Of a stretch of DNA of 64,000 nt, positions 14,223 to 64,000 are shown piece after piece. The position numbers and the translations under genes were made by a program. The DNA is taken from the NCBI GenBank assembly GCA_049513575.1, contig JBEKVZ010000007.1:10612-74611 (forward strand), given 5' to 3'. The first letter of the stretch is position 1. The number at the start of each line of letters is the position of its first letter. The stretch is from Gemmatimonadales bacterium. GTDB taxonomy: Bacteria > Gemmatimonadota > Gemmatimonadetes > Gemmatimonadales > JACORV01. The notes beneath the pieces are model-generated. The model was not told the origin of the DNA, made no database searches, and saw nothing but the letters and a program-made list of their open reading frames with translations.

Positions 14223-15133
14223 ACACCCTACACCCCACTCCCTACACCCTGTTGGTGCTGTTGCTCGCCGTCGCCTGCTCTCCGGTCGCGGACCACGCGC
14301 GGCTCGGCGACCGCCGGTACGCGGAGCGCGCGTTCGTGGACGCGCTCGCGGAGTACCGGCTCGCGATGCACCAGCGCGTGCCCGACGCCGAGCTCCGGGC
14401 CAAGTTCGCCGAGGCCGCGCTGCAGGCCGGCGCGCTGGGCGAGGCGGTCACGGCCTACCACGACCTGGCGCGCGCCGAGCCGGGGGCAGGTGACGAGGCG
14501 GCGGATGGGCTCACGCGCGCGGCGCGGCTGGCGATAGGCGCGCGCGACATCTCGGCGCTCTCCGATGCCCTGCTCGCCTTGCGCGACATCGCCCCGCAGC
14601 GGCCGGTCGGCTTTCTCGCGGTGGCGCTCGGCGCCGGCACCGCCTATGCCCGGCGCCCGGAAGCGATGGACGTCCTGTTGGAGGCGGCCGCCGCCGCGTC
14701 CACGGTGGCGGGCGCCGACTCGTTCCTCGTGGCCTACGCCGACCTCAACGTGCACATGGGCCGCTGCGACGCCGCGACCCGTACCTACGAGGCGGTCCTT
14801 CGCCGCAGCCGCCAGGTGCCGCCGCTGGTGGAGGCGGCGCGCGGCGGGCTCGCCGGCTGCTCGGTCGAGGACGGCAAGGCATCGCTGAGCGCCGGTTCGC
14901 TGCAGGACGCCGAGGTGCGCTTCCGGAAGGCGATCTCGATCGGGGAGCCCGACAGCGTCGTGCGCCTCGCGTGGCTCCTGATCGGCGACACCCGTTGGGC
15001 CAAGGGCGACACCGCCGTGGCCCAGGACGCGTACCGCCGCGCGATGTCGGGCGCCGCCGAGGGAGACCCGATCGCGGCGCGCGCGAACGATCAACTCAAC
15101 CGGTTGCTGGGGAAGGGAACTCCGACGCCATGA
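14219..15133 (+). CDS. putative lipoprotein with TPR-like helical repeats
   Basis: TTG 14219 followed by the lipobox-like signal LLVLLLAVAC. Alanine-rich helical repeats. Start is uncertain. Confidence 0.45.
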   Translation: MNTLHPTPYTLLVLLLAVACSPVADHARLGDRRYAERAFVDALAEYRLAMHQRVPDAELRAKFAEAALQAGALGEAVTAYHDLARAEPGAGDEAADGLTRAARLAIGARDISALSDALLALRDIAPQRPVGFLAVALGAGTAYARRPEAMDVLLEAAAAASTVAGADSFLVAYADLNVHMGRCDAATRTYEAVLRRSRQVPPLVEAARGGLAGCSVEDGKASLSAGSLQDAEVRFRKAISIGEPDSVVRLAWLLIGDTRWAKGDTAVAQDAYRRAMSGAAEGDPIAARANDQLNRLLGKGTPTP

Positions 15134-16430: not shown

Positions 16431-16512
16431 GGAGGCACGGAGGCACAGAGGTCCTGAGGCACGGGAACGGCGCTGCACCGGCCGTGCCTCCGTGCCGCCG
16501 TGCCCCCGTGCG
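16431..16512. repeat. octamer-periodic imperfect palindrome, GAGGCACG family (copy A1)
   Basis: Left arm is about 4x GAGGCACG at period 8; right arm is about 4x CGTGCCNC. Inner 9-bp stem GAGGCACGG/CCGTGCCTC. Fills the nadD-secA gap. Confidence 0.85.
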
Positions 16513-16523
16513 TTGGGCTGCTG

Positions 16524-19840
<3,317 letters not shown>

Positions 19841-23540: not shown

Positions 23541-25627
23541 CGGAGTTCCGTCTCGAGGCACCCTTCGAGCCCGCCGGCGACCAGCCCCAGGCCATCGACG
23601 CGCTGGTCCGCGGCTTCACCGCCGGCGAGCGGCATCAGGTGCTGCTCGGCGTCACCGGCTCCGGCAAGACGATGACCATGGCCACCGCCGTCCGGCGACT
23701 GGGCCGGCCGGCGCTGGTTCTCTCGCACAACAAGACGCTCGCGGCGCAGCTCTACGGCGAGCTGAAGTCCTTCTTCCCGTCGAACGCGGTCGAGTTCTTC
23801 ATCTCGTACTACGACTACTACCAGCCCGAGGCGTACGTCCCGCAGACCGACACCTACATCGAAAAGGACGCCTCGATCAACCAGGACATCGAGCGGCTGC
23901 GCCTCCGGGCGACGTCGAGCCTGGTGGAGCGGGACGACGTGATCGTCGTGGCGACGGTCTCCGCGATCTACGGCCTCGGCGACCCGGTGGAGTACCGGGA
24001 GCAGATGCTGCGGCTGGGGCGCGGCGAGACCGTCGGGCGGCGCCCGATCCTCGAGCGGCTGGTCGGGATCCAGTACCAGCGCAACGACGTCGCGTTCGAG
24101 CCCGGCAACTTCCGGGTGCGGGGCGACGTGATCGAGGTCTTCCCCGCCTACGAGGAGCAGGCGGTGCGCATCGAGCTGTTCGGGGACGCCATCGAGCGCA
24201 TCGTCAAGATCGATCCGCTGACCGGGCGGAAGGTCGCCGAGCTGGAGCGGTGCGCGATCTATCCGGCCACCCACTTCGTCACGAACCGCCCCAACCTCGA
24301 GCGCGCCATCGGCCTGATCCGCGAGGAGCTGGCGGCGCGCCTCGCCGCGCTCAAGGAGGCGGGGAAGCTCCTCGAGGCCCAGCGCCTCGAGTCGCGCACC
24401 CGCTTCGACATCGAGATGATGCTCGAGGTCGGCACCTGCCACGGGATCGAGAACTACAGCCGCCACCTCTCGGGCCGCGCGCAGGGCGAGCGCCCGGCGG
24501 TCCTGATGGACTTCTTCCCCAAGGACTTCCTCGTGATCGTGGACGAGTCGCACGTCACCGTGCCGCAGATCGGCGCGATGTACGCCGGCGACCGCTCGCG
24601 CAAGGAGACGCTCGTCGAGTACGGCTTCCGCCTCCCCTCGGCGCTCGACAACCGCCCCCTGCGCTACGACGAGTTCCTCCAGCTCGCACCCCGCGCGCTC
24701 TTCGTCTCCGCCACCCCCGGCCCCGAGGAGCTGCGCCTCTCCGGCGGCGCCGTGGTCGAGCAGCTCGTCCGGCCAACGGGCTTGGTCGATCCGGAGGTCG
24801 AGGTCCGCAAGGTCGAAGGCCAGGTGGACGACCTGCTCAAGGAGATCCGCGCGCGGGAACGCCGCGGCGAGCGCGTGCTCGTGACCACGCTGACCAAGCG
24901 GATGGCGGAGGACCTCACCGACTACCTGGCTCAGGTGGGCGTGCGCGTCCGGTACATGCACTCCGACATCGACGCCATCGAGCGGATGGACATCATCCGC
25001 GGCCTCAGGCTGGGCGAGTTCGACGTGCTGGTCGGGATCAACCTGCTCCGCGAGGGGCTCGACCTCCCGGAGGTCTCGCTGGTCGCGATCCTCGACGCCG
25101 ACCAGGAGGGCTTCCTGCGCTCGCGTACGTCGCTCATCCAGACGGTGGGCCGCGCGGCGCGCCACCTCGACGGCAAGGCGATCCTCTACGCCGATCGGAT
25201 GACCGACTCGATGAAGGCGGCGCTGGCGGAGATGGACCGCCGCCGCTGCACCCAGGAGCGCTACAACGCCGAGCACGGGATCACGCCGCGCTCCATCGTC
25301 AAGTCGGTGGACCAGATCCGTTTCACCACCCGCGTCGCCGACGCGCGCGAGGACCCGGTCCCCCGCGCCGAGGCGGTGTCCCTGATGGGGAAGGCCGCGG
25401 GCGACTGGAGCGGCCTCGACCAGGCGCAGCGCGAGACGCTGGTCAGGCAACTCGAGGACGAGATGCGCCGGGCGGCCGACGACCTGGATTTCGAGCTGGC
25501 CGCGCAGCTGCGCGATCAGATTCTCGATCTCAGGGCGAGCACGCAGAATCGGGGACGCGCGGACGCACCGACGCATGGACGCACGGAAGAAGCTCGGGGT
25601 AGGCGTGGGCGGCCGGCGCGTCGATGA
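23537..25627 (+). CDS. uvrB: excinuclease ABC subunit B
   Basis: GTG 23537 overlaps the relA stop. [10 protein letters not shown] Walker [11 protein letters not shown] beta-hairpin region, C-terminal UVR motif. Confidence 0.95.
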
Positions 25628-26033
25628 AGCGGAGCTGGGCCGGTTCGGCGAGGCGTTCGCCCGCTCGCTCCGGCCGCCCGTTGCCGTCGGCATCGCCGGC
25701 GAGCTGGGCGCGGGCAAGACCACCCTGGTCCGCGCCATCGCCCACGGCCTCGGCGTCGTCGAGCCGGTGACCAGCCCGACCTTCGCCCTTGTGCACCGCT
25801 ACGCGGGCGGGGGCACGACCGTCTATCACGTGGACGGCTACCGATTGAAGCCCTCGGAGGCCGTGGCGGACCTCGGGATCGACGACGCGCTGGCGGAGCC
25901 GGACAGCGTCGTCCTGATCGAGTGGCCGGAACGGCTCGGCGAAGCGCTCCCGACGCTGGCTCACAGCATCCGGTTGAGTTACACGGACGACGACGAGATC
26001 AGGGAGCTCGAAGTGGACGGCAGGTCCCCGTGA
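25575..26033 (+). CDS. tsaE: tRNA t6A37 biosynthesis ATPase TsaE
   Basis: P-loop [14 protein letters not shown] and SPTFALVH. The start overlaps the uvrB end by 53 nt and is uncertain. Confidence 0.8.
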
Positions 26034-26665
26034 CCGGTCTCTTCCTCGCGCTGGATACCGCGACGGACGTGCCGTCGCTGGCCGTGGGCACGCCCCGGGA
26101 CCCGGGGCCCGGGATCCGGATCCCGGGACGCCGTGAGCTGTCCCGGGATCTCGAGCGCTGGACGGCGCAGCTTCTCTCGGCTCGCGGCGTGGAGGTGGGC
26201 GATCTCGCGGGCGTCGTCGTCGCCGACGGTCCCGGGAGCTTCACCGGCTTGAGGATCGGCATCGCCTTCGCCAAGGGGCTGTGTCGCGCCCGGCGCCTGC
26301 CACTCCTCGCCGCTCCCTCGCTCCTCGGCGCCGCCTGGACCGCCGCGCGGGGCTCGGGCGTTGCGCTGGCCGAGTACGACGCTCTGCGCGGTGACGTGTA
26401 CCGCGCCGCGTATCGGCTGGCCCCGGGAGGCGTCGAGGTCCTGCTCGCTCCCGCCCTGGCGGCGGCCGGCTCGAGCGCCGATCTGCCGGAGGGCTACGCG
26501 CGCGCGACGGCCGACCAGGCGTCGGCGGCCTCGCTCCTCCGCCTCGTCGGGCTGAGCGGCGGCGCGCACGCCGTCACCGATCCGGCGCGGTGGGAGCCAG
26601 CCTACGGGCGCCCGGCGGAGGCCGAGGCGCGCTACCGCGCGCACCAGGCGGCACATGGCGCCTAG
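26030..26665 (+). CDS. tsaB: tRNA t6A37 biosynthesis protein TsaB (YeaZ)
   Basis: GTG 26030 (GTGA overlap). LALDTAT and GPGSFTGLRIG motifs. Confidence 0.8.
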   Translation: MTGLFLALDTATDVPSLAVGTPRDPGPGIRIPGRRELSRDLERWTAQLLSARGVEVGDLAGVVVADGPGSFTGLRIGIAFAKGLCRARRLPLLAAPSLLGAAWTAARGSGVALAEYDALRGDVYRAAYRLAPGGVEVLLAPALAAAGSSADLPEGYARATADQASAASLLRLVGLSGGAHAVTDPARWEPAYGRPAEAEARYRAHQAAHGA

Positions 26666-28970: not shown

Positions 28971-29040
28971 AGTCGAGAGTTGAGCGCCGAGAGTTGAGAG
29001 TGCTCGACTCTCAACCCTCACAGCGCAAACCTCTCAGCGC
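28971..29040. repeat. imperfect palindrome, GAGAGTTGAG variant (terminator-like hairpin)
   Basis: GAGAGTTGAG occurs twice (28975, 28989). A 12-bp stem 28989-29000/29008-19 has one mismatch and a 7-nt loop. It starts 5 nt after the LysM gene stop. Confidence 0.7.
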
Positions 29041-29055
29041 AGGGTCCTTCATTCC

Positions 29056-30006: not shown

Positions 30007-30010
30007 GACC

Positions 30011-30106
30011 GGAGGCACGGAGGCACGGGCGCACGGGGGCACAGGCACGGCGACTCGCCGCCTGGTTGTCTGTGCCGCTGTGCCTCTGTGCCGCCGTGCC
30101 CGCTGC
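30011..30106. repeat. octamer-periodic imperfect palindrome, GAGGCACG family (copy A2)
   Basis: GGAGGCAC GGAGGCAC GGGCGCAC GGGGGCAC on the left; TGTGCCGC TGTGCCTC TGTGCCGC CGTGCC on the right. Fills the gap before tolQ. Confidence 0.85.
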
Positions 30107-39473: not shown

Positions 39474-39625
39474 GACAAGTGAGAAGGGCCAGGTGAGACG
39501 GCGAAGTGCGGGGTGAGAGGTGAGAGGCCGCGCCGCAGCTGACGGGCGACCTCTCACCTCTCGCGCTTCTCGACCTCTCGCCTCTCACTTTGCCCTCTCA
39601 GGTTTTTCCCCTCTCACCCCGCACG
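39468..39625. repeat. long imperfect palindrome, GTGAGAG family (copy B1)
   Basis: GTGAGA core occurs 5x on the left arm and TCTCAC/TCTCGC about 6x on the right. Inner 13-bp stem GAGAGGTGAGAGG/CCTCTCACCTCTC. GTGCGGGGTGAGAGG at 39506 has a perfect complement at 39611. Confidence 0.85.
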
Positions 39626-46240: not shown

Positions 46241-46486
46241 ATGTTCGAAGGCTTGAGCCTGACCCACATTCTGCTCTTCCTGGTCATCCTGCTGCTGCTC
46301 TTCGGGGCCAAGCGGCTGCCGGAAATCGGCGGCGCGCTGGGGAAGTCCATCGGGGAGTTCAAGCGCAGCATGCGGGACGTGCAGAACGAGTTCAATACGT
46401 CCGCGAACCAGCAGGGGCGAATCGAGCCACCGCCGCCCCCCAGCCAGCCTGCTCCGCCGCAGCCGCCCAAGGCCCCGGGTGCGTGA
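46241..46486 (+). CDS. tatA: twin-arginine translocase subunit TatA/E
   Basis: AAGGAG Shine-Dalgarno. ILLFLVILLLLFGAKRLPEIGGALGKSIGEFK is the canonical TatA TM plus amphipathic helix. Confidence 0.9.
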   Translation: MFEGLSLTHILLFLVILLLLFGAKRLPEIGGALGKSIGEFKRSMRDVQNEFNTSANQQGRIEPPPPPSQPAPPQPPKAPGA

Positions 46487-46640
46487 GAGGTGAGAGGGAC
46501 CGACGGGACGTGAGACGGTGGAGTCAGACGTGAGCAGGGGAAAGGCGTGAGGGGTGAGGGGCCATACGCGGCCTCTCACCCCTCACCTCGTCCTCTCACT
46601 TCTCCCTTCGCCTTCTCACCCCTTGCGCCTCACCGCTCAC
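46483..46640. repeat. long imperfect palindrome, GTGAGAG family (copy B2)
   Basis: Sits between convergent tatA (+) and ppiD (-). Inner 17-bp stem GTGAGGGGTGAGGGGCC/GGCCTCTCACCCCTCAC has one mismatch. Arms overlap both stop codons. Confidence 0.85.
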
Positions 46641-56223: not shown

Positions 56224-58420
56224 TCTCTGGGCCATAGGGGCCCTGCTCGCGGGTCTGTTCCTGGCGCTCGCGGCGGCCCCCGGCGTTTCGCTCACCGGCC
56301 CGGTCGGCGTCGCCCTCGGGGCCGGACTGCGCTCCTTCTTCGGCGCCGGCGCCGCCGCCGTCCCGCTCATCCCGCTCTTCTGGGCCGTCGCGCTCTTCGG
56401 CCACCTCGACCGCAGCCTCGGCCGCCGCGTCACGATCCTCCTCGCCGGCCTCTCTCTCACCGTGCCGCTCGCTCTCGGCGTCGGCTACCAGACCTGGGAG
56501 AGCGTCGCGCACGCCGCGCTCGTGTCCGGCGCGCTGCCGGAATACCCGCGCTGGGTGGGCCTCGCCGGCGGGTTCCTTGCGTACGAGCTGAGGATCATCG
56601 GGCCCGTGGGCGAGGGCCTCCTCGCGCTGGGCATCTTCTCGGGGCTCACCATCGCCACGGTGGGATGGAATCCGCTGGGGATGCTGCGAAAACGGGAAGC
56701 GGCGTCGGGTGTCGGGGGTCAGGTGTCGGGGGCTGTCGAGGCGCCGCCTCCCGAGCTCCCGGAAGACGTCTTCGCGAGCGCTGAGGAGGAGGCTGAAGAG
56801 GAGTCCGTGCCCGCCAAGCGGGGCCGGAAGGGCGGGGCCCCGGCACCCGGCACCCGGCACCCGACACCTGCTTTGGCCGACGAGCTTCCCCCGATCGACC
56901 TGCTGAATCCCCCGTTGCCCCAGCCGGCCAACTTCGAGGCCGAGCTCGATCGCCTCCAGAGCGTACTGATCGACACGCTGAGGCAGTTCAAGGTCGAGGG
57001 GGCGATCGGCGGGCGGACCACGGGACCGGTGGTCACGCAGTTCGAGGTCGTCCCGGCCGCTGGCGTGAAGGTGGGGCGCATCGCGGCGCTCGCGGACGAT
57101 CTGGCGCTCACGATGCGCGCGCAGAGCATCCGCATCGTCGCGCCGATCCCGGGGAAAGGCGCGGTCGGCGTCGAGGTGCCGAATCCGACGCCGCGCCTGG
57201 TCGGCTTTCGCGAGCTGCTCGAGGCGCCCGAATGGCAGAAGGCGGTCCAGCGCCTGCTCCTGCCCGTCGCGCTGGGCCGGGACCTCGAAGGCCGGCCGAT
57301 CATCGCCGACCTGACGAAGATGCCGCACCTCCTGATCGCCGGCGCCACCGGCTCGGGGAAATCGGTCTGCATCAACACGCTCATCACGAGCCTCGTGTAC
57401 CGCTACACGCCGGCCGAGATGCGCTTCCTGATGATCGATCCCAAGATGGTCGAGCTGTCGATGTACAACGCGCTGCCGCACCTCAGGCACCGCGTCGTCA
57501 CCGACAACAAGGACGCCGCGCACGTGCTCAAGTGGGCCGTGTGGGAGATGCAGGATCGCTACGAGCTGCTCCACGCCAACAACGCCCGCAACCTGGTGGA
57601 CTTCAACCACAAGCTCGCCGAGGACCCGTCGACGATCGTGAAGCCGAACGGCGAGGCGTACGAGGAGGGAGCGCTCCCCTACATCCTCCTCTTCGTGGAC
57701 GAGCTGGCCGACCTCATCATGACCGTGCAGGCCGAGGTCGAGACGCCGCTGGCGCTGCTCGCGCAGAAGGCGCGGGCGATCGGCATCCACCTGATCCTCG
57801 CGACCCAGCGGCCGTCGGTGAACGTCATCACCGGCCTCATCAAGGCGAACTTCCCCTGCCGGATCGCCTTCCGCGTCGCGTCCAAGATCGACAGCCGTAC
57901 CATCCTCGATCAGAACGGCGCCGAAGCGCTGCTGGGCAACGGGGACATGCTCTTCATGCCGCCGGGGAAGAGCGACCTGATGCGGCTGCAGGGCGCGTTC
58001 GTCGGCACCGACGAGACCGAGAAGCTGATGCACTGGTTCGACGCGCGGGCCGAAGCGCGGCGTGAGGCGGCCGCTGAGGCCGCAGAGGCGGGCGCGGAGG
58101 GCGCTGAAGGAGAAGCCGGCGAGGCCGACATCCTCGAGGTCGTGCGCGCGCGGATCGCCGAGGAGGAAGGCGGCGACGAGGGCGGCGCCGACGCCGGCGG
58201 CGGGCTGGCGGAGCGCGATCCGCTCTTCCGCCAGGCCGCGGAAGTCTGCATCCAGAACCAGCTCGGCTCGACGTCGCTCCTCCAGCGGCGCCTCAAGATC
58301 GGCTACGGCCGCGCGGCCAGGATCATCGACCAGCTGCACGATGCCGGCATCCTCGGGCCGCCGGACGGGTCCAAGGCTCGGGAGGTGCTCGTGGGGTTGC
58401 AGGATCTCGATCAGTACTGA
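56177..58420 (+). CDS. ftsK: DNA translocase FtsK
   Basis: N-terminal TM segments, Walker A GATGSGKSVCINT, Walker B FVDELADL, C-terminal gamma winged helix GSTSLLQRRLKIGYGRAARIIDQL. Confidence 0.9.
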   Translation: MPTAGSRRIDPRTKDDLWAIGALLAGLFLALAAAPGVSLTGPVGVALGAGLRSFFGAGAAAVPLIPLFWAVALFGHLDRSLGRRVTILLAGLSLTVPLALGVGYQTWESVAHAALVSGALPEYPRWVGLAGGFLAYELRIIGPVGEGLLALGIFSGLTIATVGWNPLGMLRKREAASGVGGQVSGAVEAPPPELPEDVFASAEEEAEEESVPAKRGRKGGAPAPGTRHPTPALADELPPIDLLNPPLPQPANFEAELDRLQSVLIDTLRQFKVEGAIGGRTTGPVVTQFEVVPAAGVKVGRIAALADDLALTMRAQSIRIVAPIPGKGAVGVEVPNPTPRLVGFRELLEAPEWQKAVQRLLLPVALGRDLEGRPIIADLTKMPHLLIAGATGSGKSVCINTLITSLVYRYTPAEMRFLMIDPKMVELSMYNALPHLRHRVVTDNKDAAHVLKWAVWEMQDRYELLHANNARNLVDFNHKLAEDPSTIVKPNGEAYEEGALPYILLFVDELADLIMTVQAEVETPLALLAQKARAIGIHLILATQRPSVNVITGLIKANFPCRIAFRVASKIDSRTILDQNGAEALLGNGDMLFMPPGKSDLMRLQGAFVGTDETEKLMHWFDARAEARREAAAEAAEAGAEGAEGEAGEADILEVVRARIAEEEGGDEGGADAGGGLAERDPLFRQAAEVCIQNQLGSTSLLQRRLKIGYGRAARIIDQLHDAGILGPPDGSKAREVLVGLQDLDQY

Positions 58421-59928: not shown

Positions 59929-59964
59929 ATGGGGTTTCGGCATATATTCGGGTGGCGTGAAGGC

Positions 59965-59997
59965 GGGGGGTTAGGGGTTAGGGGTTAGGGGTTAGGG
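59965..59997 (+). repeat. (GGGGTTA)n heptamer tandem repeat, G-quadruplex-type motif
   Basis: GGGGGG TTA GGGG TTA GGGG TTA GGGG TTA GGG on the + strand, 115 nt upstream of the recA ATG. Confidence 0.9.
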
Positions 59998-60026
59998 CCG
60001 CGCGAGGCAGGTTCTGAATCTCGCGA

Positions 60027-60068
60027 CTGGCAACTGGTAACCACTGGCAACTTGCCGTCTGGCAACTG
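60027..60068. repeat. GTTGCCAG-family right-arm element (copy D3)
   Basis: Three direct CTGGCAAC cores (60027, 60044, 60059). A 19-nt identity CTGGCAACTGGTAACCACT is shared with 51157-51175. Confidence 0.8.
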
Positions 60069-60111
60069 AACCGTATCCGTCGGCTCTGAACTTTGTTTCC
60101 GCGAGGCGAGG

Positions 60112-61811: not shown

Positions 61812-64000
61812 ATGGATGCCGCACGGATTCGCCGCCGTTTCCTCGACTTCTTCGTCGAGCGAGGCCACCGCGAGGTAGCCTCGTCGTCGCTCGTCCCGCG
61901 GGACGACCCGACCCTCCTGTTCACCAACGCCGGGATGGTGCAGTTCAAGCGCGTCTTCCTGGGGATCGAGCGCCGGGACTACAAGCGCGCGACCACCTCC
62001 CAGAAGTGCGTGCGGGCCGGCGGCAAGCACAACGACCTCGAGCAGGTGGGGCACACCGACCGGCACCACACCTTCTTCGAGATGCTCGGCAACTTTTCCT
62101 TCGGCGACTACTTCAAGAAGGAGGCGATCGGCTTCGCCTGGGAGTTCGTGACCTCGCAGCAGTGGCTGGGCATCCATCCCGACCGCATCAGGATCAGCGT
62201 GCACGCGAAGGACGACGATGCGCGGCGGCTCTGGCACGACGTGGCCGGCGTCAGCGACGACCGCATTTACGGCCTGGGCGATGCGGACAACTTCTGGCAG
62301 ATGGCCGACACCGGCCCCTGCGGGTTCTGCAGCGAAGTGTACGTCGACCTGGCGGGCACGGGGGCACGGGGGCACGGAGGCACGGAGCTCGCCGAGCCGG
62401 TGAGCGACCACATCCACTCCCTCGACACGTTCGTGGAGTTGGCGGAGGCGGGGCGGTTCCTGGAGATCTGGAACCTCGTCTTCATGCAGTTCGACCGGCA
62501 GGCCTCCGGCGAGCTCGTGCCGCTTCCCGCGCCGTCGGTGGACACGGGTGCCGGGCTCGAGCGCATCGCCGCAGTGCTGCAGGGCGTCGGCTCCAACTTC
62601 CACACCGACCTCTTCGCGCCGCTCATCGCCCGTGCCGAGCTGGTGGTCGGCAAGGCGTACGACAAGGGGCCGGCCGGCGCGCCGTTCCGCGTCCTGGCCG
62701 ACCACGCCCGGGCGGTGGCGTTCCTGCTCGCCGACGGCGTCTATCCGTCGAACGAGGGGCGCGGCTACGTGCTGCGCCGGATCCTGCGGCGCGCGGTCCG
62801 CCACGCCTATCTCCTCGGGCGTCGCGAGCCGACGCTGGTGCGCCTGGTCGAGGAGGTCGCGCGAGTGATGGGGGGCGTCTACCCCGAGCTGCAGCAGCAC
62901 GCCGCGCAGCTCTCCGAGGTCACGACCGCCGAGGAGGAGCGCTTCCTCGAGACGATCGAGGGCGGGCTCGAGCGGCTCGCGGACTTGAAGGCGGTCTCGG
63001 CGGAGGAGGCGTTCAAGCTCTACGACACTTACGGTTTCCCGATCGACCTCACGCAGATCGTCGCGGCCGAGCGGGGCATCGCGGTGGACGTCCCGGGCTT
63101 CGAGAAGCTGCTCGACGGGCAGCGGGAGCGGTCACGAAATGCGGCCGGCACCGGGGCACAGAGGCATGGAGGCACGGGTGCCGGCGGTGAGGTTTCCCGT
63201 GCCTCCGTGCGCCCGCGCCTCAGTGCCTCCGACTGGGTGTCGGTCAAGAAGCGGGCCCGTCAACGCTGGGTCGGCTACGAGACCACGCGCGCCGAGACCG
63301 ATATCCTGGCGTTCGAGCAGGAGAAGGGCCGCGTCGGCCTGATCCTCCACGAGAACCCGTTCTACGCGGAGAGCGGCGGCCAGGTCAGCGACACGGGCGA
63401 GGTGAAGGGGCGGGGCTGGAGGCTTCCGGTGGAGGAGGTCCGCAAGGTCGAGGGCAAGACTGCCGTCTTCGGCCCGTTCCACGGCCCGTTCGAGCCGACG
63501 CCCGTCGAGGCCGTCGTCGACGGGCGGCTGCGGCGCGACACCGAGCGCAATCACACCGCGACGCACCTGCTCCACGCGGCGCTCCGCAAGATCCTCGGCA
63601 CGCACGTGCGGCAGGCCGGGAGCGTCGTCTCGCCCCAACATCTCCGTTTCGACTTCACGCACCATCAGCCGATCCCGCCGCTGGCCCTGGCCGAGGTCGA
63701 GGCGGAGATCAACCAGCACGTCTGGGAGAACCTCGACGTCGTGCAGAAGGAGATGGCGTACGCCGACGCGCTGACGGTGGGCGCGATGGCGCTGTTCGGC
63801 GAGAAGTACGGCGACGTCGTGCGGACGATCACCGTGCCCGGCGTCTCGATGGAGCTGTGCGGCGGTTGCCACGTGCGGACCACGGGCCAGATCGGCCTTC
63901 TGCGTCTGGTGGGCGAGACGGGCGTCGGCGCCGGCGTGCGCCGCGTCGAGGCGCTCACCGGGCCCGGGGCGTTCGACTGGCTGCTGGAGCGCGTGCGGCT
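61812..64000 (+). CDS. alaS: alanine--tRNA ligase, 3' end outside window
   Basis: Not in the ORF track because the frame stays open to the window end. Hand translation from ATG 61812 found no stop. Matches MDAARIRRRFLDFFVERGH, KCVRAGGKHNDLE, FFEMLGNFSFGDYFK and HTATHLLH. Confidence 0.95.
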   Translation, partial: MDAARIRRRFLDFFVERGHREVASSSLVPRDDPTLLFTNAGMVQFKRVFLGIERRDYKRATTSQKCVRAGGKHNDLEQVGHTDRHHTFFEMLGNFSFGDYFKKEAIGFAWEFVTSQQWLGIHPDRIRISVHAKDDDARRLWHDVAGVSDDRIYGLGDADNFWQMADTGPCGFCSEVYVDLAGTGARGHGGTELAEPVSDHIHSLDTFVELAEAGRFLEIWNLVFMQFDRQASGELVPLPAPSVDTGAGLERIAAVLQGVGSNFHTDLFAPLIARAELVVGKAYDKGPAGAPFRVLADHARAVAFLLADGVYPSNEGRGYVLRRILRRAVRHAYLLGRREPTLVRLVEEVARVMGGVYPELQQHAAQLSEVTTAEEERFLETIEGGLERLADLKAVSAEEAFKLYDTYGFPIDLTQIVAAERGIAVDVPGFEKLLDGQRERSRNAAGTGAQRHGGTGAGGEVSRASVRPRLSASDWVSVKKRARQRWVGYETTRAETDILAFEQEKGRVGLILHENPFYAESGGQVSDTGEVKGRGWRLPVEEVRKVEGKTAVFGPFHGPFEPTPVEAVVDGRLRRDTERNHTATHLLHAALRKILGTHVRQAGSVVSPQHLRFDFTHHQPIPPLALAEVEAEINQHVWENLDVVQKEMAYADALTVGAMALFGEKYGDVVRTITVPGVSMELCGGCHVRTTGQIGLLRLVGETGVGAGVRRVEALTGPGAFDWLLERVR
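62354..62386. repeat. GAGGCACG-family half element inside alaS (copy A3)
   Basis: CACGGGGG CACGGGGG CACGGAGG CACGGAG, four units at period 8, translated as AGTGARGHGGTE. Confidence 0.8.
63147..63231. repeat. GAGGCACG-family complete palindrome inside alaS (copy A4)
   Basis: Perfect 11-bp stem GGAGGCACGGG (63168-78)/CCCGTGCCTCC (63196-206) flanked by further octamer units. Read in frame as GTGAQRHGGTGAGGEVSRASVRPRLSAS. Confidence 0.85.

Follow-up and report, generated by a model that had tools for sequence, protein, structure and literature searches.

The 64,000-nucleotide stretch of Gemmatimonadales DNA that we analysed (hereafter the window) ends inside alaS, the gene for alanyl-tRNA synthetase (AlaRS), whose frame begins with an ATG at 61812 and stays open as far as the window reaches. 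Fragment 3HXU of E. coli AlaRS aligned to residues 3-446 of its product (E = 5.7e-144), homology to the editing domain picks up again at residue 498 (3WQY), and the Pfam domains tRNA-synt_2c, tRNA_SAD and DHHA1 are present in its homologs. Between these two structural matches lies an 85-nt imperfect palindrome (63147-63231), in which about four GGNGGCAC units on the left and about four inverted ones on the right enclose a 17-nt centre, and a second array, with one arm only, is found further upstream in the same gene (site 2). The features of alaS are the following:

61812 to 64000, forward strand: alaS (alanyl-tRNA synthetase), 5' 729 codons, truncated by the window end
62354 to 62385, forward strand: alaS site 2, four GGGCACGG copies in a one-armed array (95% matches), read in frame within a loop of the catalytic domain
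63147 to 63178, forward strand: left arm of the alaS element, about four octamers, GGCACCGG GGCACAGA GGCATGGA GGCACGGG
63179 to 63195, forward strand: centre (loop) of the element, the 17 nt TGCCGGCGGTGAGGTTT, which differ between copies and from the orthologous copy in the relative L081
63196 to 63231, forward strand: right arm, with some four units in inverted orientation, CCCGTGCC TCCGTGCG CCCGCGCC TCAGTGCC TCC

The repeat search delimited two arms of 32 nt each (63147-63178 and 63196-63227), 78% complementary and 17 nt apart, on both of which TRF detected period-8 arrays, of 3.6 and 4.4 copies. Their core is a perfect 11-bp stem, GGAGGCACGGG/CCCGTGCCTCC, pairing 63168-78 with 63196-206. 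The alaS frame is intact across the element, which reads as ...QRERSRNAAGTGAQRHGGTGAGGEVSRASVRPRLSASDWVSVKK... (residues 446-474) and is probably translated, judging from this open frame and from the presumed essentiality of alaS. The RNA of 63140-63238 has a predicted folding energy of -62.5 kcal/mol, compared with -49.1 +/- 3.2 for shuffled sequences (z = -4.24), and 0 of 200 shuffles were as stable. The palindrome with its centre and 11-bp stem, the open frame with its peptide, the very stable hairpin and the location before the editing domain had all been put forward in the original prediction, and they were confirmed, respectively, by the repeat search and the sequence, by translation, by folding and by the structural matches. 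An estimate that the protein is 20-25 residues longer there than E. coli AlaS also proved sound: the linker holding the element has 44 residues and that of Erwinia AlaS, taken as an enterobacterial proxy, 21 between identical anchors.

The match to the catalytic fragment stops at residue 446, exactly where the residues encoded by the element begin. In the AlphaFold2 model of AlaS, pLDDT falls below 50 at exactly residues 445-472 and 187-198, and neither segment has secondary structure; the element thus fits the modelled fold as part of a linker between the catalytic fragment and the editing domain. This linker is hypervariable, with about 30-110 residues between the anchors in 120 homologs of 737-971 residues, and its complexity is low in all relatives. 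The AlaRS hinge is one of two AlaRS positions where Gemmatimonadales accept almost any sequence. At site 2, the array encodes TGARGHGGT and stands in place of the native loop of the relatives, KDPKTGTWNGEH. An octamer array, its period not being divisible by 3, encodes the same 8-residue periodic peptide in all frames, so that only its total length must be a multiple of three.

Across the window, the bare 8-mer GAGGCACG is not enriched (10 matches versus 6.5 +/- 2.3 expected), and tests on arrays were used in place of this non-significant count. Runs of three octamer units gave 5 matches at 3 loci versus 0 in 30 Markov controls, with a strict pattern that misses the alaS element itself, whose units are too degenerate. 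The window holds 18 arrays of period 7-8 that reach 3.4 copies or more (3.4-5.4 each), versus 0-4 in the controls; 7 of the 18 are in frame, in the housekeeping genes alaS, ftsK, uvrB and a tsaB-like gene, six inverted pairs are able to form a stem-loop, and four arrays (at 14223, 16431, 28971 and 30010) begin 1-5 nt past a stop codon. The arrays outside alaS include:

14223 to 14250, forward strand: one-armed array of four ACACCCT copies, beginning 1 nt past a stop codon
16431 to 16511, no strand assigned: intergenic copy with the alaS-type unit, GGAGGCAC x4.2 and CCGTGCCC x3.8, beginning 2 nt past the stop of a cytidylyltransferase gene, with secA downstream
25553 to 25587, forward strand: one-armed array, 4.4 copies of GGACGCAC (one base different from the alaS-type unit), read in frame within the uvrB tail, C-terminal of the UVR motif
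26094 to 26129, forward strand: heptamer array of 5.1 CCCGGGA copies, within the tsaB-like open reading frame 25922-26662
28971 to 29041, no strand assigned: intergenic heptamer palindrome AGTTGAG / CTCAACC, 5 nt past the stop of a LysM-domain gene
30010 to 30105, no strand assigned: intergenic copy with the alaS-type unit, x5.4 and x4.4, beginning 4 nt past the stop of an epimerase gene
39512 to 39588, no strand assigned: heptamer palindrome GGTGAGA / ACCTCTC, in the intergenic region upstream of urocanase
46483 to 46619, no strand assigned: heptamer palindrome GTGAGAG / TCTCACT, in the intergenic region of convergent genes, with a fold of -105.9 kcal/mol
56704 to 56732, forward strand: left heptamer array of ftsK, GTCGGGT x3.9, in frame in the linker, of shared architecture and another unit
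56839 to 56868, forward strand: right array of ftsK, CCCGGCA/CCCGACA x4.3, complementary to the left one, in frame in the linker
59967 to 59997, forward strand: one-armed perfect array of 4.4 GGGGTTA copies, upstream of recA

The alaS element belongs to a dispersed family of tandem-octamer palindromes. Its type of unit recurs in further copies at 16431 and 30010, in the array at 62354 and, as a one-base variant, in that at 25553, as expected from the original prediction, which had placed the element in a repeat family; the 30010 copy is 91% identical to the right arm over 33 nt. Loop and unit number vary from copy to copy, and one-armed arrays also occur. The two ftsK arrays of the window lie about 105 nt apart with a conserved coding spacer between them. 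All the unit types found inside genes are open in six frames, and three of the four intergenic unit types tested have stops in 3-6 frames.

Comparison with relatives gave a more nuanced picture of the presence/absence polymorphism with precise boundaries for which a check had been proposed. The polymorphism exists: an orthologous, differently decayed copy of the element is found in L081/L082 (AlaS 90% identical), and the element is absent from the alaS DNA read in eight other relatives (L083, L084 and L086-L091). The boundaries are not precise, and among relatives with 85-91% identical AlaS none has a precisely bounded empty alaS site: where the element is missing, the entire linker is swapped, the flanks being replaced and not split, and several of these relatives have other dispersed palindromes at that linker site. 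Identity of the alaS DNA with L081/L082 is 91.6% overall and 82% within the element, and a different unit pair stays perfect in the window and in L081.

One palindrome in the alaS linker of a relative shares 55 nt, at 100% identity, with an intergenic site of another genome, and others of the relatives' alaS palindromes recur in frame in mgsA (90% identity over 92 nt), for which a clean empty allele was found. The 55-nt identity and the empty mgsA site, which concern a different repeat family, look like the insertion of a defined element. Other positions behave in another manner. Octamer-type peptides encoded by one-armed arrays occur at the alaS linker (site 1) in another clade, and the unit type of the alaS element shows up independently at the site 2 loop in several clades, with array boundaries that vary by lineage. 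Upstream of recA, the position of the array is orthologous in relatives and the unit has changed; in ftsK, no fewer than four distinct unit sequences, each complementary between the arms, occur across lineages, the arms co-varying at a spacing of about 105-130 nt on either side of the conserved coding segment.

Folding of the alaS linker in relatives showed that its hairpin is no conserved structural requirement. The z-scores were -3.9 for the window and -4.1 for L081, whose copy folds at -68.5 kcal/mol despite 18% divergence; they were -0.3 for L083 and +1.0 for L086, both with AlaS 88-91% identical to that of the window. Some linker hairpin is seen in the majority of close relatives (z of -1.5 to -4.1), and fold z-scores revealed no excess structure in the linkers of more distant Gemmatimonadales and of Erwinia. 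Rfam gave no match on the window at gathering thresholds, and on 14 metagenome loci only generic miRNA-hairpin matches, all below threshold.

In metagenomes, a scan turned up at least 120 (CACGGAGG)n stretches, and 35 of 84 matches have an inverted partner within 300 nt. The palindromes lie in contigs with a GC content of 0.38-0.74 and their ends are often similar (TTCACCAC...GTGGTGAA). Three metagenome candidates for in-frame copies were set aside: L131 matches the conserved NuoD motif GPCLRAS by chance, L117 is located upstream of a start codon and L151 has no frame of coding-like composition. The alaS repeat sequence had no match in full-text literature, and a search of the literature on repeats in Gemmatimonadetes or Gemmatimonas found nothing relevant.

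The explanation that best covers these observations as a whole, to which we give a probability of about 60%, is that a copy of a dispersed repeat sits in the AlaRS hinge as a tolerated passenger and that such repeats spread by copying linked to replication. The alaS element would be a copy of the dispersed type in which a short centre, not conserved, separates about four tandem 8-nt GGNGGCAC units from about four inverted ones, and was probably gained before the organism of the window and that of L081 split; after the split it appears to have drifted faster than the remainder of the gene. Its product would be a disordered stretch of about 28 residues, rich in Gly, Ala, Arg, Thr, His, Ser and Pro, which presumably makes the hinge longer without having a function of its own, and it may be tolerated by virtue of a unit that is stop-free in all six frames. 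New copies would arise through slippage, a switch of template within the strand, or conversion from other arrays at microhomology. Such replication-linked copying seems preferable to cut-and-paste transposition, which is disfavoured by the replaced flanks, the varying boundaries of site 2, the one-armed arrays, the unrelated loops and the lack of a transposase in the window ORFs scanned.

The alternative that survives best, though we consider it unlikely, is that the alaS element is a non-autonomous mobile element, similar to a MITE, a REPIN or a Rickettsia palindromic element (RPE), moved as a whole unit by an enzyme acting in trans and landed in frame. It would account for a dispersed family with intergenic and intragenic copies, for the near-identical palindromes of sister genomes (alaS versus intergenic, alaS versus mgsA), for the clean empty mgsA allele and for the often similar ends of (CACGGAGG)n palindromes in contigs of 38-74% GC. 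However, none of the copies inspected (alaS, 16431, 30010 and the SIS/adh_short spacer copies of relatives) shows a target-site duplication, and the flanks in alaS are replaced. Unit number and loop differ in all copies, one-armed arrays are common, and upstream of recA and in the ftsK arms it is the unit type that changes at a fixed position. Finally, no transposase family, including RAYT, was matched among the approximately 40 window ORFs scanned, and none was found among the called genes at the relatives' loci, in a search that covered about 64 kb plus flanks per genome. The original prediction spoke of an RPE-like selfish element. RPE-like behaviour was indeed found in the lineage, given that identical repeat sequences occur between genes and in frame in alaS and mgsA and that mgsA has a clean empty allele. 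The selfish mobility did not fare as well: for the alaS element it can only be inferred, because there is no empty site and no duplication, the copies are variable and the scanned ORFs hold no transposase.

Still less probable is that the hairpin itself is selected in the alaS mRNA or DNA, as a translational pause at the domain boundary or as a regulatory or processing site, the repeat merely building the structure. A linker hairpin of some kind occurs in most close relatives, and the ftsK arrays, complementary and co-varying between lineages, flank a conserved coding spacer. Since the window and L081 kept stable hairpins across 18% divergence, some selection on pairing of the alaS element may exist. 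Against a selected hairpin stand the lack of excess structure in L083, L086, distant Gemmatimonadales and Erwinia, the unrelated sequences found at the site in different lineages, which are copies of repeats present elsewhere, and the loss of pairing at different unit pairs in the window and in L081, without compensation. An ordinary low-complexity linker expanded in place by slippage, its palindrome and repeat likeness being coincidental, is very improbable and largely refuted: the linker is hypervariable and of low complexity in all relatives, the window has no excess of the bare octamer and a clean empty alaS site is absent, but no shuffle out of 200 folds as well, both arms share their unit with the 16431 and 30010 palindromes (the latter so close to the right arm), the unit occurs independently at the second alaS loop in several clades, and three-unit arrays were absent from all 30 controls.

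Beyond the tolerated, replication-copied repeat favoured here, a broader possibility can be raised tentatively: Gemmatimonadales, and perhaps many soil bacteria, may possess a process that writes arrays of about four copies of 7-8 nt at fixed positions and keeps the arms complementary while the unit turns over. If so, ftsK would be a case of concerted evolution of a coding hairpin, even inside essential genes, driven perhaps by template switching from arm to arm or by selection acting on a long-range structure of the mRNA or DNA, and the alaS palindrome would be a product of this process instead of a transposed element.

To our knowledge, the textbook cases of palindromic repeats in frame in essential genes come almost only from Rickettsia. 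The present repeats would constitute a second system, in a free-living, GC-rich phylum and with much simpler tandem units of 7-8 nt. They suggest a rule of tolerance, by which a unit that is stop-free in six frames can reside within a gene, and they draw a map of permissive sites (the AlaRS hinge, a loop of the AlaRS catalytic domain, the FtsK linker, the inter-domain linker of MgsA and the UvrB tail) which would be natural hot spots of insertion. Disordered linkers may lengthen from non-coding repeats, and alaS shows a route for this. In practice, in-frame repeats raise the apparent protein divergence and the length variation in metagenomic gene catalogues, and the hairpins are likely to trouble assembly and PCR. 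The co-varying arms of ftsK offer a test case for deciding whether complementarity is due to mutational copying or to selection.

Several known systems resemble these repeats in part. PMC10969869, which relates the work of Ogata et al. (2000, 2002), presents RPEs as ten families of complex sequences, some 150 bp in length, from AT-rich, obligate intracellular Alphaproteobacteria. The likeness lies in dispersed palindromes found between genes and in frame in unrelated housekeeping genes, with a peptide at permissive positions, and in the recurrence of repeat-derived peptides across proteins (alaS and mgsA in relatives; the two alaS sites and uvrB in the window). The alaS element, in contrast, is shorter and simpler (85 nt of tandem 8-nt units, 70% GC, in free-living Gemmatimonadales), its flanks are replaced and one-armed forms exist. 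Given the Gemmatimonadales host and the GC content, sequence homology to RPEs is not expected, and the two are likened by behaviour only.

REP sequences and REPINs are extragenic, have no tandem units and are linked to the RAYT transposase (Bertels and Rainey 2011, PMC3116915). They share with the present family paired inverted short repeats, a less conserved spacer, a long hairpin and abundant dispersal, but the window copies have tandem units and lie inside coding frames, and no RAYT was found within the window ORFs scanned. The arms of the alaS element are inverted like those of MITEs, but lack the flanking target-site duplication. Long inverted repeats inside translated functional genes have been described as perfect, up to 284 bp in length, with arms encoding conserved protein regions (2019, PMC6649704); hairpin and coding constraints act together there too, but the alaS arms encode a disordered, hypervariable linker. 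According to Monttinen and Loytynoja (2022, PMC8794818), template switching in replication is reported to create and maintain hairpins, in RNA genes and generally. Copying of one arm onto the other by this route could explain the co-changing ftsK arms without selection on each substitution, although neither tandem-unit arms nor coding regions are treated there.

Abundant intergenic tandem heptamers occur in several phyla, such as the STRR heptamer repeats of cyanobacteria together with small dispersed repeats (SDR). We know of no description of in-frame copies in essential genes for these repeats or for those of Beggiatoaceae. The latter are TAACTGA direct repeats (PMC4679880). Unlike the palindromes described here, all three are mostly direct repeats of AT-richer genomes.

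The closest architecture is that of the G-rich tandem heptamers of Xanthomonas, (GGGAATC)n, and Nostoc, (GGGGA[C/T]T)n, mostly in about four copies and frequently arranged as convergent inverted pairs (Rehm et al. 2015, PMC4692102). Each Xanthomonas genome has 70-75 convergent pairs of repeat sites, capable of forming stem-loops, among about 185 repeats; most repeats lie within 50 bp of a stop codon, and 7-11% (Xanthomonas) or about 32% (Nostoc) are intragenic (PMC4692102). The architecture of the alaS element matches these inverted heptamer pairs, as does the window more generally, with its arrays of 3.4-5.4 copies, six convergent pairs, four arrays starting 1-5 nt past stops and units of similar kind such as GGGGTTA and GGGGATT. 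The original prediction's statement that it was aware of no equivalent description of this repeat type is therefore superseded. The differences are a period of 8 and not 7 in the alaS element, its intragenic position, the mixture of many unit types in one genome and the 7 of 18 arrays in frame. Four or more tracts of at least three G are present in the GGGGTTA and GTCGGGT arrays of the window and absent from the alaS element, in which a three-tetrad G-quadruplex is not expected because GG tracts predominate in the GGNGGCAC units. PMC4692102 contains no analysis of the peptides encoded, of unit turnover at a fixed position or of co-variation between arms.

The element lies inside the open alaS frame, as had been predicted: the frame starts with an ATG at 61812 and meets no stop up to the window end, and the peptide encoded across the element is the one originally written. 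Its two arms (63147-63178 and 63196-63227), each a period-8 tandem array, are 78% complementary across 32 nt, enclose a 17-nt centre and include the perfect 11-bp core, and the stable hairpin also claimed was recovered by folding of the RNA (-62.5 kcal/mol, z = -4.24, with 0 of 200 shuffles as stable). In the protein, the alignment with residues 1-441 of the E. coli enzyme, the catalytic fragment crystallised as 3HXU, reaches as far as AlaS residue 446, the first one encoded by the element; homology to the editing domain (3WQY) picks up again at residue 498. At 44 aa, the linker that holds the element (site 1) is longer than that of Erwinia (21 aa) or of the shortest Gemmatimonadales sequences (29-32 aa). 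An AlphaFold2 model using 60 homologs as input (mean pLDDT 81) contains six segments with pLDDT below 50, including two long stretches without any secondary structure: residues 445-472, which are the element, and 187-198, which overlap a second octamer array in a catalytic-domain loop (site 2).

Further arrays and palindromes in the window
62354-62385, alaS: GGGCACGG x4 with 95% matches, in frame, encoding TGARGHGGT in the catalytic-domain loop
16431-16511: palindrome with the same unit as the alaS element, beginning 2 nt past a stop codon
30010-30105: palindrome with the same unit, beginning 4 nt past a stop codon
25553-25587, uvrB: one-base variant unit GGACGCAC x4.4, in frame at aa 672-683 of 696, in the tail that follows the UVR motif at the C-terminus
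26094-26129, tsaB-like ORF 25922-26662: CCCGGGA x5.1, at about aa 57-69, encoding PRDPGPGIRIPGR

Three-unit runs matched 5 times in the window and never in 30 Markov controls, and 18 arrays of period 7-8 with at least 3.4 copies were counted versus 0-4 in controls; the bare octamer count, taken alone, was not significant. The arms of the alaS and 30010 copies are 91% identical over 33 nt, and resemblance between window copies is confined to the arms. Four intergenic arrays (14223, 16431, 28971 and 30010) start just 1-5 nt past the stop of the gene before them, which suggests either a role as terminator or 3'-stabiliser or a spread until coding constraint was met. The window has a GC content of 70.5%, and the tsaB-like ORF an atypically low GC3 for it. 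The ORFs scanned against Pfam gave a housekeeping gene or no match (carB, murB, sugar-nucleotide enzymes, secA, relA/spoT, uvrB, tsaE, tsaB, ssb, tatC, lptD, hut genes, ftsK, recA, recX and alaS were identified), and no transposase was among them. SecA (16500-19838) has 1113 aa, about 200 more than that of E. coli, and the 290 positions of the SecA_DEAD profile are stretched across residues 16-560; further repeat-derived insertions are possible there.

A scan of metagenome contigs with a query of two exact units matched at least 120 stretches. The 80 loci read (L092-L171) span 38-74% GC, so that this type of unit is widespread well beyond the phylum of the Gemmatimonadales. Among the 84 matches listed, almost all were intergenic; for 35 of them an inverted partner array lay no more than 300 nt away, the loop between the two measuring 18-187 nt. 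Palindromes of the form (CACGGAGG)n ... (CCTCCGTG)n, often ending in TTCACCAC...GTGGTGAA, occur in these very different genomes and carry a repeated Shine-Dalgarno-like GGAGG on one arm and CCTCC on the other. Neither Rfam nor a string search of the literature returned a family or paper matching octamer-unit palindromes.

The best AlaS matches in genomes come from Gemmatimonadales MAGs (58-66% identity), and metagenomic proteins reach 91%. An FtsK (P0125) from a 12,969-nt JGI metagenome contig is 100% identical to that of the window across 87% of its length; public data therefore contain this organism or one almost identical to it, from which reads at the population level could be drawn. Two loci from independent samples (L081 and L082), with AlaS 90% identical to ours, carry an orthologous element; their alaS DNA is 91.6% identical to the window overall and only 82% within the element. 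The perfect unit pair is the innermost one in the window and the next one in L081, which indicates decay from a better ancestral palindrome, not compensation. The element is absent from L083, L084 and L086-L088 (AlaS 85-91% identical) and from L089-L091, and there the entire stretch from QRERSR to W.PVKKR differs from the window, so that a sharp empty alaS site is absent among these relatives. Of the pattern originally proposed for checking, the polymorphism among relatives stands, with an orthologous copy in two loci and none in eight others, and the precise empty boundary in alaS does not.

Site 2 has a native loop, KDPKTGTWNGEH, which is probably ancestral because it is present in two clades. 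In its place the window, L083 and L087 have (GGCACGGG)n, and L084 and L088 have (GGACGCAC)n, with boundaries that are not the same between cases; distant clades (P0009, P0014) add further independent examples. Exact 6-residue array peptides were found in 7 of 121 AlaS sequences (the window and six homologs), at sites 1 and 2 only, and the two sites do not vary together, P0003 having site 1 only and P0001 site 2 only.

Several relatives without the alaS element have other dispersed palindromes at the same linker position. A 55-nt double hairpin, GGCACGGCGCGCCGCACACCGGCGCGCCGGCAGAGCGCTCGCGGAGCGAGCGCG, in the L084 linker is 100% identical to a copy in the intergenic SIS/adh_short spacer of L088, and also occurs in the L087 and L088 linkers, the 3' end of the L087 SIS gene and the interior of L091 mgsA. 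Between L088 and L084 alaS its first stem shows paired changes (GGCGTGCC/GGCACGCC versus GGCGCGCC/GGCGCGCC). The L089 linker shares 92 nt at 90% identity with a segment within L090 mgsA.

Dispersed repeat and mgsA/rarA hot spot in relatives
L088 11180-11234; L084 11387-11441; L087 7809-7892 and 11509-11564; L091 20426-20493: 55-nt double-hairpin repeat, dispersed between genomes and loci
L084 19421-20974; L090 19696-21207; L091 19666-21201: mgsA/rarA hot spot, filled
L088 15722-17146: mgsA/rarA hot spot, empty

This in-frame hot spot lies between LEAAAEY and (R/V)(I/L)TA..VADALQ and receives palindromic repeats common to alaS linkers. The L088 allele is cleanly empty (LEAAAEY-QRS-GRLTAG), and L084, L090 and L091 have in-frame inserts of about 45-65 aa, with peptides matching those of alaS linkers in other genomes. 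The RPE pattern of PMC10969869 is demonstrated for these sister repeat families.

The linker folds with z-scores of -3.9 and -4.1 where it contains the alaS element and between -1.5 and -2.9 where it contains other palindromes, versus -0.3 for L083, +1.0 for L086 and about 0 to -1.6 for species further away; judged from these predicted folds, a hairpin in the alaS linker would not be needed. Tolerance inside genes follows the reading frames. The units GGAGGCAC, GGGGGCAC, GGACGCAC, GTCGGGT, GGGGTCC and GGGGATT are stop-free in all six frames, CCCGGGA of the tsaB-like ORF has no stop in any frame, and stops interrupt 3-6 frames of the intergenic-only units GTGAGAG, GGGGTTA and AGTTGAG. GGGTGTA is open solely as TACACCC, the orientation occurring in ftsK. 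Distant FtsK homologs (P0170-P0191) show one-armed 7-residue periodic peptides at the same linker position (PSAVSRQ xN, QVPGARG x3.5); for PSAVSRQ the inferred unit is (CCGTCAG)n, and the missing second arm fits the TGA in its reverse complement.

Heptamer arrays of ftsK and of the recA-upstream spacer
Window 56704-56732 and 56839-56868; L081 5985-6209; L083 1139-1366; L087 2199-2420; L212 2822-3040; L213 10382-10594: complementary in-frame ftsK arrays
Window 59929-60111 (array 59967-59997); also L081, L083, L084 and L087-L091: recA-upstream spacer

Between the two ftsK arrays lies a coding spacer that is conserved (..PEDLFA..VPAKRGR..). The arrays are mutually complementary in six lineages, and their sequences there are of at least four kinds (units GTCGGGT, GGGGTCC, GGGGATT/GGGGGTT and GGTGGTR). 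Cognate duplexes reach -57 to -67 kcal/mol versus mostly -30 to -47 for non-cognate ones, except for pairs sharing a unit type. The arms are mismatched in L084 and L091, L088 and L090 have no arrays, and left and right peptide types occur together across dozens of homologs. This complementarity could reflect selection for a long-range helix or template switching between arms, a route described for hairpins (PMC8794818). Upstream of recA, an array occupies the same position in 8 of the 9 loci read (it is absent from L081) with differing units: GGGGTTA in the window, L083 and L084, GGGGCTA in L091, GTGAGAG in L087, GGGTGTA in L088 and L089, and a degenerate GGTGGTR-like array in L090. It is one-armed and comes after a conserved TTCGG(C/T)(A/G)TATATTCGGGTG; the window copy, (GGGGTTA)x4.4, is perfect and telomere-like, with putative G-quadruplex potential, and G3-4 tracts at 7-nt spacing also occur in GTCGGGT, GGGTGTA and GGGGTCC. 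Repeated CTGGCAAC/CTCGCAAC motifs come after the array and could be a regulator-binding array, perhaps an SOS box; in L083, L087 and L091, inverted copies of them build long palindromes downstream of ftsK.

Classical cut-and-paste transposition as the source of the octamer and heptamer arrays is argued against by replaced flanks, one-armed arrays, unit numbers that vary between copies, unrelated loops, and the lack of a target-site duplication in the copies inspected and of a transposase among the ORFs viewed. A fixed position with a changing unit, as upstream of recA and in the ftsK arms, points to copying in place. The original reading is borne out in part: the alaS element is an in-frame copy from a dispersed family of palindromes and varies in presence between relatives; that it is a selfish mobile element, inserted precisely, is the less likely reading.

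Membership of the RPE, REP or MITE families was rejected on the features that could be tested. We conclude that the element is a palindrome of simple repeats whose RPE-like behaviour is new for the phylum and whose permissive sites are fixed while the sequence there turns over repeatedly. In architecture, the heptameric tandem repeats described for Xanthomonas and Nostoc come nearest: they have about 4 units, are found mostly no more than 50 bp from a stop and are intragenic in 7-32% of cases, with 70-75 convergent pairs of repeat sites among about 185 repeats in a Xanthomonas genome (PMC4692102); in behaviour, the nearest are the RPEs (PMC10969869).
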